64,000 nt of DNA. It comes from Escherichia coli. Lineage in GTDB: Bacteria > Pseudomonadota > Gammaproteobacteria > Enterobacterales > Enterobacteriaceae. Of the stretch, positions 6,470 to 53,861 are shown in pieces (position 1 is the stretch's first letter; every line of letters starts with the position of its first letter). The notes below the pieces were generated by a model, which saw nothing but the letters and a program-made list of their open reading frames with translations, was not told where the DNA came from and searched no databases. A program made the translations under genes and the position numbers. Location of the stretch: assembly GCF_003334305.1 (NCBI RefSeq), contig NZ_QOWS01000006.1; one strand, written 5' to 3'.

Positions 6470-6595
6470 ACTTGAGAAGGAGCCTCAAATCCCTTCGCCG
6501 GCGTTATCCGGATCAGGTTCGACGGGTATTTTCTCAGCGCACGCGTTTGCGTGGCACCCCGTTGAGAACGGCGTTAGTGTAGTGATTTTGTTATC
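6470..6595 (-). promoter_or_regulatory. sroA: TPP riboswitch (THI-box) in the thiBPQ leader; corresponds to the SroA RNA fragment
   Basis: Minus-strand sequence ctgagaaaatacccgtcgaacctgatccggataacgccggcgaagg carries the conserved THI-box CUGAGA...ACCUGAUC-GGAUAAUGCC-GCGAAGG, directly upstream of thiB. Boundaries approximate. Confidence 0.85.
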
Positions 6596-8327: not shown

Positions 8328-8554
8328 GATGAAGCAAGGGGGTGCCCCATGCGTCAGTTTTATCAGCACTATTTTACCGCGACAGCGAAGTTGTGCTGGT
8401 TGCGTTGGTTAAGCGTCCCACAACGATTAACCATGCTTGAAGGACTGATGCAGTGGGATGACCGCAATTCTGAAAGTTGACTTGCCTGCATCATGTGTGA
8501 CTGAGTATTGGTGTAAAATCACCCGCCAGCAGATTATACCTGCTGGTTTTTTTT
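8328..8554 (+). ncRNA. sgrS: SgrS small RNA (dual-function: base-pairing sRNA plus sgrT mRNA)
   Basis: Divergent from sgrR; contains the sgrT ORF; 3' end has the conserved seed region (gtgtgactgagtattggtg) and an intrinsic terminator ccagcag-attatac-ctgctgg followed by an 8-T run (8526-8554). The 5' end is from memory of the annotation. Confidence 0.85.
8349..8480 (+). CDS. sgrT: SgrT, 43-aa inhibitor of glucose transporter PtsG, encoded within SgrS
   Basis: ATG at 8349 gives MRQFYQHYFTATAKLCWLRWLSVPQRLTMLEGLMQWDDRNSES. Confidence 0.85.
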   Translation: MRQFYQHYFTATAKLCWLRWLSVPQRLTMLEGLMQWDDRNSES

Positions 8555-11827: not shown

Positions 11828-14490
<2,663 letters not shown>

Positions 14491-14533
14491 GGTTTGGGTC
14501 CTTGTCTCTTTTAGAGCGCCTCGCTTCGGGCAT

Positions 14534-14564
14534 AAAAAAACCCGCGCAATGGCGCGGGTTTTTT
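14534..14564 (-). terminator. leu operon attenuator (intrinsic terminator between leuL and leuA)
   Basis: On the transcribed minus strand: hairpin cccgcgccattgcgcggg followed by a 7-U run; lies between the leader peptide stop and leuA start. Confidence 0.85.
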
Positions 14565-14582
14565 GTTTGACTGCGTGCTGGC

Positions 14583-14669
14583 TTAATGCTGGATGCCGCT
14601 CACTCGTCTACCGCGCAAAGAAGATGCGTTTAGTAGTAGTAGACCGATAAAGCGAACGATGTGAGTCAT
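14583..14669 (-). CDS. leuL: leu operon leader peptide LeuL (28 aa, four consecutive Leu codons)
   Basis: [28 protein letters not shown]; the four Leu are consecutive CUA codons (complement of tagtagtagtag at 14631-14642). Confidence 0.9.
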
Positions 14670-14774
14670 TAAATCAGCTCCAGATGAATGCGATATGCTT
14701 TTAGAGTTACTGGATACAAAAACGGATGTCAACCCTGACGCAATAAAAACGTCCCGCCAGCGTGAGTTCTGCAT

Positions 14775-34115: not shown

Positions 34116-34946
34116 ATGTCGCAGGCTGCTCTGAACACGCGAAACAGTGAAGAAGAGGTTTCTTCTCGCCGCAATAATGGAACGCGTCTGGCGGGGATCC
34201 TTTTCCTGCTGACCGTTTTAACGACAGTGTTGGTGAGCGGCTGGGTCGTGTTGGGCTGGATGGAAGATGCGCAACGCCTGCCGCTCTCAAAGCTGGTGTT
34301 GACCGGTGAACGCCATTACACGCGTAATGACGATATCCGGCAGTCGATCCTGGCATTGGGTGAGCCGGGTACCTTTATGACCCAGGATGTCAACATCATT
34401 CAGACGCAAATAGAACAACGCCTGCCGTGGATTAAGCAGGTGAGCGTCAGAAAGCAGTGGCCTGATGAATTGAAGATTCATCTGGTTGAATATGTGCCGA
34501 TTGCGCGGTGGAATGATCAACACATGGTAGACGCGGAAGGAAACACCTTCAGCGTGCCGCCAGATCGCACCAGCAAGCAGGTGCTTCCAATGCTGTATGG
34601 CCCGGAAGGCAGCGCCAATGAAGTGTTGCAGGGCTATCGCGAAATGGGGCAGATGCTGGCAAAGGACAGATTTACTCTGAAGGAAGCGGCGATGACCGCG
34701 CGGCGTTCCTGGCAGTTGACGCTGAATAACGATATTAAGCTCAATCTTGGCCGGGGCGATACGATGAAACGTTTGGCTCGCTTTGTAGAACTTTATCCGG
34801 TTTTACAGCAGCAGGCGCAAACCGATGGCAAACGGATTAGCTACGTTGATTTGCGTTATGACTCTGGAGCGGCAGTAGGCTGGGCGCCCTTGCCGCCAGA
34901 GGAATCTACTCAGCAACAAAATCAGGCACAGGCAGAACAACAATGA
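34116..34946 (+). CDS. ftsQ: Cell division protein FtsQ
   Basis: 276 aa; single TM plus POTRA; [48 protein letters not shown]... Confidence 0.95.
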
Positions 34947-36205
34947 TCAAGGCGACGGACAGAAAACTGGTAGTAGGACTGGAGATTGGTACCGCGAAGG
35001 TTGCCGCTTTAGTAGGGGAAGTTCTGCCCGACGGTATGGTCAATATCATTGGCGTGGGCAGCTGCCCGTCACGTGGTATGGATAAAGGCGGGGTGAACGA
35101 CCTCGAATCCGTGGTCAAGTGCGTACAACGCGCCATTGACCAGGCAGAATTGATGGCAGATTGTCAGATCTCTTCGGTATATCTGGCGCTTTCTGGTAAG
35201 CACATCAGCTGCCAGAATGAAATTGGTATGGTGCCTATTTCTGAAGAAGAAGTGACGCAAGAAGATGTGGAAAACGTCGTCCATACCGCGAAATCGGTGC
35301 GTGTGCGCGATGAACATCGTGTGCTGCATGTGATCCCGCAAGAGTATGCGATTGACTATCAGGAAGGGATCAAGAATCCGGTAGGACTTTCGGGCGTGCG
35401 GATGCAGGCAAAAGTGCACCTGATCACATGTCACAACGATATGGCGAAAAACATCGTCAAAGCGGTTGAACGTTGTGGGCTGAAAGTTGACCAACTGATA
35501 TTTGCCGGACTGGCATCAAGTTATTCGGTATTGACGGAAGATGAACGTGAACTGGGTGTCTGCGTCGTCGATATCGGTGGTGGTACAATGGATATCGCCG
35601 TTTATACCGGTGGGGCATTGCGCCACACTAAGGTAATTCCTTATGCTGGCAATGTCGTGACCAGTGATATCGCTTACGCCTTTGGCACGCCGCCAAGCGA
35701 CGCCGAAGCGATTAAAGTTCGCCACGGTTGTGCGCTGGGTTCCATCGTTGGAAAAGATGAGAGCGTGGAAGTGCCGAGCGTAGGCGGTCGTCCGCCACGG
35801 AGTCTGCAACGTCAGACCCTGGCAGAGGTGATCGAGCCGCGCTATACCGAGCTGCTCAACCTGGTCAACGAAGAGATATTGCAGTTGCAGGAAAAGCTTC
35901 GCCAACAAGGGGTTAAACATCACCTGGCGGCAGGCATTGTATTAACCGGTGGCGCAGCGCAGATCGAAGGTCTTGCAGCCTGTGCTCAGCGCGTGTTTCA
36001 TACGCAAGTGCGTATCGGCGCGCCGCTGAACATTACCGGTTTAACGGATTATGCTCAGGAGCCGTATTATTCGACGGCGGTGGGATTGCTTCACTATGGG
36101 AAAGAGTCACATCTTAACGGTGAAGCTGAAGTAGAAAAACGTGTTACAGCATCAGTTGGCTCGTGGATCAAGCGACTCAATAGTTGGCTGCGAAAAGAGT
36201 TTTAA
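34943..36205 (+). CDS. ftsA: Cell division protein FtsA (actin-like ATPase)
   Basis: 420 aa; [57 protein letters not shown]... Confidence 0.97.
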
Positions 36206-36265
36206 TTTTTATGAGGCCGACGATGATTACGGCCTCAGGCGACAGGCACAAATCGGAGAGAAACT

Positions 36266-37417
36266 ATGTTTGAACCAATGGAACTTACCAATGACGCGGT
36301 GATTAAAGTCATCGGCGTCGGCGGCGGCGGCGGTAATGCTGTTGAACACATGGTGCGCGAGCGCATTGAAGGTGTTGAATTCTTCGCGGTAAATACCGAT
36401 GCACAAGCGCTGCGTAAAACAGCGGTTGGACAGACGATTCAAATCGGTAGCGGTATCACCAAAGGACTGGGCGCTGGCGCTAATCCAGAAGTTGGCCGCA
36501 ATGCGGCTGATGAGGATCGCGATGCATTGCGTGCGGCGCTGGAAGGTGCAGACATGGTCTTTATTGCTGCGGGTATGGGTGGTGGTACCGGTACAGGTGC
36601 AGCACCAGTCGTCGCTGAAGTGGCAAAAGATTTGGGTATCCTGACCGTTGCTGTCGTCACTAAGCCTTTCAACTTTGAAGGCAAGAAGCGTATGGCATTC
36701 GCGGAGCAGGGGATCACTGAACTGTCCAAGCATGTGGACTCTCTGATCACTATCCCGAACGACAAACTGCTGAAAGTTCTGGGCCGCGGTATCTCCCTGC
36801 TGGATGCGTTTGGCGCAGCGAACGATGTACTGAAAGGCGCTGTGCAAGGTATCGCTGAACTGATTACTCGTCCGGGTTTGATGAACGTGGACTTTGCAGA
36901 CGTACGCACCGTAATGTCTGAGATGGGCTACGCAATGATGGGTTCTGGCGTGGCGAGCGGTGAAGACCGTGCGGAAGAAGCTGCTGAAATGGCTATCTCT
37001 TCTCCGCTGCTGGAAGATATCGACCTGTCTGGCGCGCGCGGCGTGCTGGTTAACATCACGGCGGGCTTCGACCTGCGTCTGGATGAGTTCGAAACGGTAG
37101 GTAACACCATCCGTGCATTTGCTTCCGACAACGCGACTGTGGTTATCGGTACTTCTCTTGACCCGGATATGAATGACGAGCTGCGCGTAACCGTTGTTGC
37201 GACAGGTATCGGCATGGACAAACGTCCTGAAATCACTCTGGTGACCAATAAGCAGGTTCAGCAGCCAGTGATGGATCGCTACCAGCAGCATGGGATGGCT
37301 CCGCTGACCCAGGAGCAGAAGCCGGTTGCTAAAGTCGTGAATGACAATGCGCCGCAAACTGCGAAAGAGCCGGATTATCTGGATATCCCAGCATTCCTGC
37401 GTAAGCAAGCTGATTAA
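36266..37417 (+). CDS. ftsZ: Cell division GTPase FtsZ
   Basis: 383 aa; tubulin signature GGGTGTG (…[20 protein letters not shown]…). Confidence 0.98.
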
Positions 37418-39239: not shown

Positions 39240-41945
39240 ATGCTAATCAAATTGTTAACTAAAGTTTTCGGTAGTCGTAACGATCGCACCCTGCGCCGGA
39301 TGCGCAAAGTGGTCAACATCATCAATGCCATGGAACCGGAGATGGAAAAACTCTCCGACGAAGAACTGAAAGGGAAAACCGCAGAGTTTCGTGCACGTCT
39401 GGAAAAAGGCGAAGTGCTGGAAAATCTGATCCCGGAAGCTTTCGCCGTGGTACGTGAGGCAAGTAAGCGCGTCTTTGGTATGCGTCACTTCGACGTTCAG
39501 TTACTCGGCGGTATGGTTCTTAACGAACGCTGCATCGCCGAAATGCGTACCGGTGAAGGTAAAACCCTGACCGCAACGCTGCCTGCTTACCTGAACGCAC
39601 TAACCGGTAAAGGCGTGCACGTAGTTACCGTCAACGACTACCTGGCGCAACGTGACGCCGAAAACAACCGTCCGCTGTTTGAATTCCTTGGCCTGACTGT
39701 CGGTATCAACCTGCCGGGCATGCCAGCACCGGCAAAGCGCGAAGCTTACGCATCTGACATCACTTACGGTACGAACAACGAATACGGCTTTGACTACCTG
39801 CGCGACAATATGGCGTTCAGCCCTGAAGAACGTGTACAGCGTAAACTGCACTATGCGCTGGTGGACGAAGTGGACTCCATCCTGATCGATGAAGCGCGTA
39901 CACCGCTGATCATTTCCGGCCCGGCAGAAGACAGCTCGGAAATGTATAAACGCGTGAATAAAATTATTCCGCACCTGATCCGTCAGGAAAAAGAAGACTC
40001 CGAAACCTTCCAGGGCGAAGGCCACTTCTCGGTGGACGAAAAATCTCGCCAGGTGAACCTGACCGAACGTGGTCTGGTGCTGATTGAAGAACTGCTGGTG
40101 AAAGAGGGCATCATGGATGAAGGGGAGTCTCTGTACTCTCCGGCCAACATCATGCTGATGCACCACGTAACGGCGGCGCTGCGCGCTCATGCGCTGTTTA
40201 CCCGCGACGTCGACTACATCGTTAAAGATGGTGAAGTTATCATCGTTGACGAACACACCGGTCGTACCATGCAGGGCCGTCGCTGGTCCGATGGTCTGCA
40301 CCAGGCTGTGGAAGCGAAAGAAGGTGTGCAGATCCAGAACGAAAACCAAACGCTGGCTTCGATCACCTTCCAGAACTACTTCCGTCTGTATGAAAAACTG
40401 GCGGGGATGACCGGTACTGCTGATACCGAAGCTTTCGAATTTAGCTCCATCTACAAGCTGGATACCGTCGTTGTTCCGACCAACCGTCCAATGATTCGTA
40501 AAGATCTGCCGGACCTGGTCTACATGACTGAAGCGGAAAAAATTCAGGCGATCATTGAAGATATCAAAGAACGTACTGCGAAAGGCCAGCCGGTGCTGGT
40601 GGGTACTATCTCCATCGAAAAATCGGAGCTGGTGTCAAACGAACTGACCAAAGCCGGTATTAAGCACAACGTCCTGAACGCCAAATTCCACGCCAACGAA
40701 GCGGCGATTGTTGCTCAGGCAGGTTATCCGGCTGCGGTGACTATCGCGACCAATATGGCGGGTCGTGGTACAGATATTGTGCTCGGTGGTAGCTGGCAGG
40801 CAGAAGTTGCCGCGCTGGAAAATCCGACCGTAGAGCAAATTGAAAAAATTAAAGCCGACTGGCAGGTACGTCACGATGCGGTACTGGAAGCAGGTGGCCT
40901 GCATATCATCGGTACCGAGCGTCACGAATCCCGTCGTATCGATAACCAGTTGCGCGGTCGTTCTGGTCGTCAGGGGGATGCTGGTTCTTCCCGTTTCTAC
41001 CTGTCGATGGAAGATGCGCTGATGCGTATTTTTGCTTCCGACCGAGTATCCGGCATGATGCGTAAACTGGGTATGAAGCCAGGCGAAGCCATTGAACACC
41101 CGTGGGTGACTAAAGCGATTGCCAACGCCCAGCGTAAAGTTGAAAGCCGTAACTTCGACATTCGTAAGCAACTGCTGGAATATGATGACGTGGCTAACGA
41201 TCAGCGTCGCGCCATTTACTCCCAGCGTAACGAACTGCTGGATGTCAGCGATGTGAGCGAAACCATCAACAGCATTCGTGAAGATGTGTTCAAAGCGACC
41301 ATTGATGCCTACATTCCGCCACAGTCACTGGAAGAAATGTGGGATATTCCGGGGCTGCAGGAACGTCTGAAGAACGATTTCGACCTCGATTTGCCAATTG
41401 CCGAGTGGCTGGATAAAGAACCAGAACTGCATGAAGAGACGCTGCGTGAGCGAATTCTGGCGCAGTCCATCGAAGTGTATCAGCGTAAAGAAGAAGTGGT
41501 TGGTGCTGAGATGATGCGTCACTTCGAGAAAGGCGTCATGCTGCAAACGCTTGACTCCCTGTGGAAAGAGCACCTGGCAGCGATGGACTATCTGCGTCAG
41601 GGTATCCACCTGCGTGGCTATGCACAGAAAGATCCGAAGCAGGAATACAAACGTGAATCGTTCTCCATGTTTGCAGCGATGCTGGAGTCGTTAAAATATG
41701 AAGTTATCAGCACGCTGAGCAAAGTCCAGGTACGTATGCCTGAAGAGGTTGAGGAGCTGGAACAACAGCGTCGTATGGAAGCCGAGCGTTTAGCGCAAAT
41801 GCAGCAGCTTAGCCATCAGGATGACGACTCTGCAGCCGCAGCTGCACTGGCGGCGCAAACCGGTGAGCGCAAAGTAGGACGTAACGATCCTTGCCCGTGC
41901 GGTTCTGGTAAAAAATACAAGCAGTGCCATGGTCGCCTGCAATAA
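39240..41945 (+). CDS. secA: Preprotein translocase ATPase SecA
   Basis: 901 aa; [47 protein letters not shown]...; C-terminal zinc-binding [14 protein letters not shown]. Confidence 0.98.
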
Positions 41946-41962
41946 AAGCTAACAGTTGAAGT

Positions 41963-41991
41963 AAAAGGCGCAGGATTCTGCGCCTTTTTTA
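41963..41991 (+). terminator. Intrinsic terminator-like hairpin after secA, upstream of mutT
   Basis: ggcgcag-gattc-tgcgcc followed by a T6 run, 14 nt before the mutT ATG. Confidence 0.65.
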
Positions 41992-42004: not shown

Positions 42005-42480
<476 letters not shown>

Positions 42481-53701: not shown

Positions 53702-53861
53702 TGATTTTTCTGGTAAAAATTATCCAGAAGATGTTGTAAATCAAGCGCATATAAAAGCGCGGCAACTAAACGTAGAACCTGTCTTATTGAGCTTTCCGGC
53801 GAGAGTTCAATGGGACAGGTTCCAGAAAACTCAACGTTATTAGATAGATAAGGAATAACCC

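Follow-up and report, generated by a model that had tools for sequence, protein, structure and literature searches.

The leuL leader of Escherichia coli as a ribosome-mediated transcription attenuator of leuABCD

The leuL locus and its surroundings

The window, meaning the whole 64-kb stretch of Escherichia coli DNA that was analyzed, contains the gene order leuL-leuA-leuB-leuC-leuD divergent from leuO, with ilvIH, cra and mraZ on one side of this neighborhood and setA and sgrT on the other. The first regulated gene is leuA (14490..12919, minus strand), a 523-aa ORF annotated as 2-isopropylmalate synthase in the RefSeq entries for identical DNA, and leuB, leuC and leuD follow it. The leuL leader ORF occupies 14669..14583 on the minus strand and consists of 28 codons plus a stop, with the ATG at 14669..14667 and the TAA at 14585..14583. 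A GGAG Shine-Dalgarno sequence (14681..14678, minus strand) is located 8 nt 5' of the ATG and falls within the Rfam match described below. leuL is a short ORF equipped with a Shine-Dalgarno sequence and an ATG for translation, and it contains a run of codons for the cognate amino acid: Leu10-13 read CUA CUA CUA CUA at 14642..14631 (minus strand). Translation of leuL has been seen by ribosome profiling (PMC8384417).

The original prediction for this DNA, which was made from the letters alone, described four consecutive rare CUA codons, and codon usage in the window bears this out. Among the 1849 Leu codons in 42 long ORFs of the window, 70 are CTA (3.8%), fewer than for any other Leu codon. The chance of four successive CTA codons calculated from this usage is ~2e-6, and the leuL run is the sole run of at least three CTA triplets on either strand of the 64 kb. 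The hairpin and U7 tract expected before leuA are also present. An intrinsic terminator lies between the leuL ORF and leuA, with a 13-bp stem (14564..14552 with 14547..14535), a CAUU loop, a calculated stability of -19.6 kcal/mol and a U-run of exactly 7 (14540..14534). The end of the U tract at 14534 is 44 nt from the leuA start codon at 14490 on the same strand.

A perfect match to the TTGACA hexamer, read from the sequence at 14732..14727 (minus strand), is the candidate -35 element of the leu promoter. The sequence TAACTC, 17 bp downstream at 14709..14704 on the same strand, is a weak candidate for the -10 element. A consensus promoter scan of the minus strand did not call the leu promoter because TAACTC fails the scan rule. 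Transcription probably starts near 14696 if the E. coli leu leader is roughly 160 nt long, the length that Wessler and Calvo reportedly gave in 1981. The description of the element as a complete device held for its parts, all of which were found at the positions assigned to them, but not for its extent: the promoter lies outside 14534-14669, and the device reaches to ~14732. The leuL frame is also open in the 5' direction as far as an ATG at 14774 (14774..14583, minus strand; listed as a 63-aa ORF). Translation of this extended frame is very unlikely, judging from its sequence, because the ATG at 14774 is upstream of the -35 hexamer.

Rfam searching positively identified the element as Leu_leader (RF00512), with a score of 145.8 bits against a gathering score of 50 (E = 4.5e-32). 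The match runs from 14534 to 14683 on the minus strand and spans model positions 1-148 of 148, and its end coordinate, 14534, is the end of the U tract. No Rfam family besides Leu_leader, and hence no riboswitch or T-box, was found between leuO and leuA at the gathering thresholds. Many E. coli chromosomes annotated with leuL and leuA match a 501-nt query spanning the site at 100% identity, and in RefSeq the identical DNA, located upstream of leuABCD, bears the label 'leuL: leu operon leader peptide' (WP_001300467.1). The interval given in the original prediction for the leu leader peptide and its attenuator, 14534-14669, proved exact to the base, running from the last U of the tract to the A of the leuL ATG, and Rfam and RefSeq agree with it. 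The attenuator at this site is already known, and the copy in the window departs nowhere from the reference.

The 163-nt leader is present as a single copy labelled leuL in 5400 of 5426 complete E. coli genomes, with at least 99% identity in 4876. The match is absent from 26 of the 5426 genomes, and 3 matches are on plasmid-labelled records. Laboratory strains deleted for leu, or replicons with wrong labels, could account for these cases.

Other RNA features occur elsewhere in the window. The Rfam matches to SgrS (8328..8554, plus strand, 228.8 bits), the TPP riboswitch (6472..6571, minus strand, 66.1 bits), tp2 (53746..53859, minus strand, 103.4 bits), STnc40 (41921..41990, plus strand, 81.7 bits) and naRNA4 (42394..42471, plus strand, 78.4 bits) are all above their gathering scores and are expected for such a stretch of E. 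coli chromosome. A match to PssrA ('Plasmid-encoded Shigella sRNA A') at 36185..36274 on the plus strand scores 105.5 bits against a gathering score of 69 and spans the short gap between the plus-strand ORFs 34943..36205 and 36266..37417. The DNA that carries it looks chromosomal, which is odd for a family named plasmid-encoded. In the neighborhood of leuO, RefSeq annotates two more very small ORFs in NZ_CP025892.1: a 'hypothetical protein' of 14 aa in the leuO-ilvI interval (L001:4429-4473) and a 'fruR/shl operon leader peptide' (L001:1994-2080) after ilvH, which is labelled ilvN in NZ_CP025892.1.

Alternative helices in nascent and complete leader RNA

Four regions of the leader RNA, all read on the minus strand, form three mutually exclusive pairings. 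Region 1 (14644..14625) is the 5' strand of the protector; its GUCUACU segment forms one side of helix P1b and overlaps the first Leu codons, and its CGCA segment (14628..14625) forms one side of P1c. Region 2, UGCGCGGUAGAC (14617..14606), is the shared strand and pairs either with region 1 or, through GCGCGG (14616..14611), with region 3. Region 3, AAAAAACCCGCGC (14564..14552), is the 5' arm of the terminator, and its CCGCGC segment (14557..14552) is the 3' strand of the antiterminator. Region 4, GCGCGGGUUUUUU (14547..14534), comprises the terminator 3' arm and the U7 tract and was assigned from the hairpin fold and the Rfam alignment. RNA folding, the check proposed along with the original prediction, confirms the mutually exclusive stems, with region 2 pairing with region 1 or 3 and region 3 pairing with region 2 or 4. 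The 8-nt sequence UUGCGCGG is a direct repeat that occurs in region 2 (14618) and again in the terminator loop plus 3' arm (14549). Region 2 and the terminator 3' arm compete for one partner because both carry this repeat. Protector, preemptor and terminator are the names used in the classical scheme for leaders of this type, and the pairings found here are that scheme.

The 171-nt leader folds at -57.5 kcal/mol compared with -39.7 ± 3.8 kcal/mol for dinucleotide shuffles (z = -4.66), and none of 200 such shuffles folded as well. The complementarity between regions 2 and 3 in leuL alone is modest (p = 0.03 against mononucleotide shuffles), and weight was therefore placed on the conserved position and covariation of this pairing. 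A consensus terminator scan of the minus strand did not report the leuL terminator (14534..14564) because the stem is extended by A6/U6 pairs, and the T residues that stay unpaired after it are too few for the scan rule. The two terminator-like hits of the scan (14484..14500, plus strand; 14347..14331, minus strand) are within shuffle expectation and were discounted.

Attenuation is decided during RNA synthesis, and the nascent RNA was therefore folded as a 149-nt transcript that ends before the terminator 3' arm emerges. The ribosome footprint was assumed to extend from -15 to +13 nt around the A-site codon. In the nascent RNA without a ribosome, P1b (GUCUACU:GGUAGAC) and P1c (CGCA:UGCG) each form with a probability of 0.97, the antiterminator probability is 0.00 and the terminator 5' arm is left unpaired. 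Masking the footprint only, with the ribosome at Leu12/13, allowed RNA 5' of the ribosome to pair across it. This was judged unrealistic, and the stalled-state fold was repeated with all RNA 5' of the ribosome masked. Under this mask, ribosome stalling at any one of the four Leu codons gives a probability of 0.98 for the GCGCGG:CCGCGC antiterminator. The corresponding value for the nascent RNA with the ribosome at the stop codon is 0.01. Pairing in the nascent-RNA ensemble thus depends on the position of the mask: the antiterminator excludes the terminator and forms only when the ribosome is stalled.

At equilibrium, the terminator forms in the complete leader with a probability of 0.97 whatever the ribosome state, and imposing the antiterminator on this RNA costs 11.8 kcal/mol (-19.9 versus -31.7 kcal/mol). 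Equilibrium folding with ribosome masks was consequently rejected as a test of the switch in favor of the nascent fold, the terminator being present in all states and the switch invisible. The alternative stems anticipated from folding are thus found in the nascent transcript but not in the complete RNA at equilibrium, which is always in the terminator form. Control is taken to be kinetic because the terminator wins by 11.8 kcal/mol in the finished RNA. Read-through would then rest on kinetics that are beyond the reach of folding, with a 6-bp antiterminator set against a more stable hairpin.

Conservation of the helices and choice of control codons

Leaders were collected by a leader-independent search, in which a degenerate DNA pattern for the conserved LeuA N-terminus was applied to one genome per species and returned 120 loci. 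Sequence of 300 nt or more upstream of the leuA anchor was available at 110 loci, and 98 of these carry a short ORF that includes three to six consecutive Leu codons. The 98 leader ORFs start ~170-260 nt upstream of the anchor. All 98 leaders retain the Leu run as the peptide sequence around it drifts, and a terminator hairpin with a U-run was detected in 97. In these 97 leaders, the best complement to the terminator 5' arm usually starts 9-15 nt past the Leu run. The terminator arm and region 2 covary, with CCGCGC/GCGCGG in Enterobacterales, ACCCGC/GCGGGU in Vibrio, and CCCGUGC with GCACGGG, GCAUGGG or GUACGGG in Glaciecola, Oceanisphaera and Psychromonas.

Helix conservation was scored by mapping the window helices onto a structure-blind MAFFT alignment of 97 distinct Gammaproteobacteria leaders, with slid partners for comparison. 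The antiterminator is paired in 96% of cells compared with 17-65% for slid partners, and 5 cells carry double changes. The terminator is paired in 91% of cells (slid partners 33-69%; 26 double-change cells), P1c in 93% (5-77%; 30 double-change cells) and P1b in 88% (26-53%; 36 double-change cells). P1a, paired in 60% of cells with slid partners at 42-53%, is weakly supported. The outermost helix (14664..14683 with 14571..14590; leader positions 13-32 with 106-125) is not conserved, its 47% of cells paired standing against 35-44% for slid partners, and it was rejected as a conserved part of the mechanism. This helix, which the Rfam consensus also shows, may occur only among close E. coli relatives.

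In the leader peptides, the conserved Arg-Gly comes from GCGCGG, which is part of region 2 (14617..14606). The third codon position is nearly fixed, with C at leader position 83 in 92 of the 97 leaders, and the Vibrionales leader ORF usually ends directly after the Arg-Gly. These two properties indicate that Arg-Gly conservation reflects a constraint of RNA pairing and not a function of the peptide.

Control codons were compared among orders, with genera assigned to orders by their usual placement. CUA is the commonest control codon in Enterobacterales, where it makes up 79% of Leu-run codons and 3.2% of Leu codons in the flanking ORFs. CUC takes this place in Vibrionales (60% of Leu-run codons, 8.0% of flanking-ORF Leu codons) and in Orbales (94% and 3.0%). 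The codon that predominates in the Leu runs of each of these three groups is the one used least among the Leu codons of the flanking long ORFs. Locus by locus, the predominant control codon ranks rarest of the six Leu codons in 32 of the 47 loci with enough flanking data and is one of the two rarest in 41 of the 47. CUC serves as the control codon in Vibrionales, Orbales, Colwellia, Budvicia, Rosenbergiella and Hafnia, and CUA in most Enterobacterales. A codon choice that tracks lineage in this way fits the idea of a rare control codon. The account in PMC1183508 considers rarity alone too simple an explanation and ascribes the choice to selective isoacceptor charging; for control-codon number it refers to Bartkus et al. 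1991.

Control-codon number varies within E. coli. Strain STEC299 (NZ_CP022279.1, host Marmota; WP_054494771.1) has five CUA codons, owing to a 3-nt insertion in the (CTA)n run at L122:102-116, which aligns to 14631..14642 of the window. The STEC299 leader is the most divergent E. coli copy, at 94.6% identity, and has several substitutions farther along the ORF. The five-CUA allele represents natural variation in control-codon number by triplet slippage.

Attenuation at leuL and related systems

The element is, with close to full confidence, the E. coli leuL leader, a ribosome-mediated transcription attenuator of leuABCD, and none of the tests run gave evidence contradicting this identity. In the proposed mechanism, transcription would begin upstream of leuL, and a ribosome would translate leuL before RNA polymerase has left the leader. 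When leucine is plentiful, the CUA-reading Leu-tRNA would be charged and the ribosome would pass the four CUA codons and reach the stop codon. Region 1, consisting of the Leu-codon stretch and CGCA, would then capture region 2 (UGCGCGGUAGAC) to form the protector. This pairing would leave the terminator 5' arm free to enter the 13-bp hairpin, and with the U7 tract transcription would end 44 nt before leuA. When leucine is scarce, the ribosome would stall at the CUA codons and cover region 1. GCGCGG of region 2 would be freed by this and would pair with CCGCGC of the terminator 5' arm once the arm is made, forming the antiterminator. The antiterminator would delay the hairpin until the polymerase clears the U tract, resulting in read-through into leuA. 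The exact start site, polymerase pausing and timing are presumptive elements of this scheme.

Leucine-specific repression, pausing at CUA and the effect of codon change are taken from the literature. Leucine represses a GFP fusion to the E. coli LeuL 5'UTR, and glycine does not (PMC2836559). Ribosomes pause at the four leuL CUA codons, RNA density in control cells drops 29-fold from leuL to leuA, and replacement of CUA by UUA in a reporter reduces induction from 11.5-fold to 2.7-fold (PMC8384417). In Salmonella, a CUA to CUG change lowers sensitivity, as PMC1183508 relates from Carter et al. 1986.

A different reading is that the hairpin is a constitutive or leaky intrinsic terminator that sets a basal level, located after a short untranslated ORF that arose by chance, with no regulated antitermination. 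The equilibrium fold of the full leader, which is the terminator in every state tested, is what such an element would give. However, the antiterminator needs the Leu codons to be masked before it reaches 0.98 in the nascent RNA, its place 9-15 nt past the Leu run and its covariation are conserved across orders, and a run of four CUA codons would arise by chance at ~2e-6. The published leucine-specific repression (PMC2836559) and codon-dependent response (PMC8384417) also argue against an unregulated terminator. The probability left to it is negligible. In some Gram-positive bacteria, the leu and ilv genes are under tRNA-sensing T-box leaders, and an RNA of the riboswitch or T-box type that senses leucine or tRNA directly, or a bound protein that does so, would make the small ORF irrelevant. 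No evidence supporting direct sensing was found at leuL, where Leu_leader is the sole Rfam family matching. The persistence of the Leu run across all 98 leaders amid drift of the peptide around it points away from an irrelevant ORF, and a response altered by synonymous codon replacement (PMC8384417) is unexpected for a ligand-sensing RNA. Direct sensing is accordingly regarded as practically dismissed.

By analogy with another leader, the terminated ~160-nt leuL RNA or the 28-residue peptide might act in trans beyond the role of the leader in cis. The precedent is rnTrpL/peTrpL of Sinorhizobium meliloti (PMC6614838, PMC7298713), and the terminated leuL transcript is abundant relative to leuA (29-fold; PMC8384417). 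The conservation of the peptide outside the Leu run is nonetheless explained by RNA pairing, given the GCGCGG that encodes Arg-Gly and the C at position 83 in 92 of 97 leaders, and the Vibrionales ORF stops right past Arg-Gly. A report of a trans role for leuL was not found in the literature, and such a role seems very unlikely. A slim chance is given to the broader proposal that a leuL RNA or peptide acts in trans or, more modestly, that the number of CUA codons, five in STEC299, tunes the leucine set-point between lineages.

Ribosome-mediated attenuation at leuL serves here as a control and not as a discovery: a textbook device was recognized from raw sequence, and the classical model was reproduced. 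Attenuators with A-tract/U-tract stems escape a simple terminator scan rule, and a kinetic switch is invisible to equilibrium folding.

The window copy and E. coli K-12 leuL (Wessler & Calvo 1981; RF00512) have the same peptide, four CUA codons, terminator and place before leuA; there is no difference of substance, and they are the same element. The E. coli trpL leader likewise relies on a ribosome-set choice between a 2:3 antiterminator and a 3:4 terminator, with stalling at codons for the end product. A ribosome at the trpL stop codon masks region 2 directly. The leuL stop codon, in contrast, is past region 2, and a footprint at this stop covers leader positions 96-124, whereas region 2 is at positions 79-90. 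leuL needs a separate 1:2 protector to prevent region 2 from pairing with region 3 because a ribosome at the stop codon leaves region 2 uncovered.

The leu leader peptide of Salmonella typhimurium differs from that of E. coli outside the Leu run. The Salmonella typhimurium leu leader has the same protector, preemptor and terminator together with rare CUA codons (Gemmill et al. 1979; Carter et al. 1986). Its CUA codons number three according to PMC1183508, compared with four in the window leuL. Vibrio cholerae LeuL also consists of a short ORF with a Leu run followed by an intrinsic terminator upstream of leuA; it is repressed by leucine, and half of its six Leu codons are CUA (PMC2836559). The sampled Vibrionales leader ORFs have 15-23 codons and use mostly CUC (60%) as opposed to CUA in E. 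coli leuL, and these leaders share the region 2:3:4 logic of E. coli leuL.
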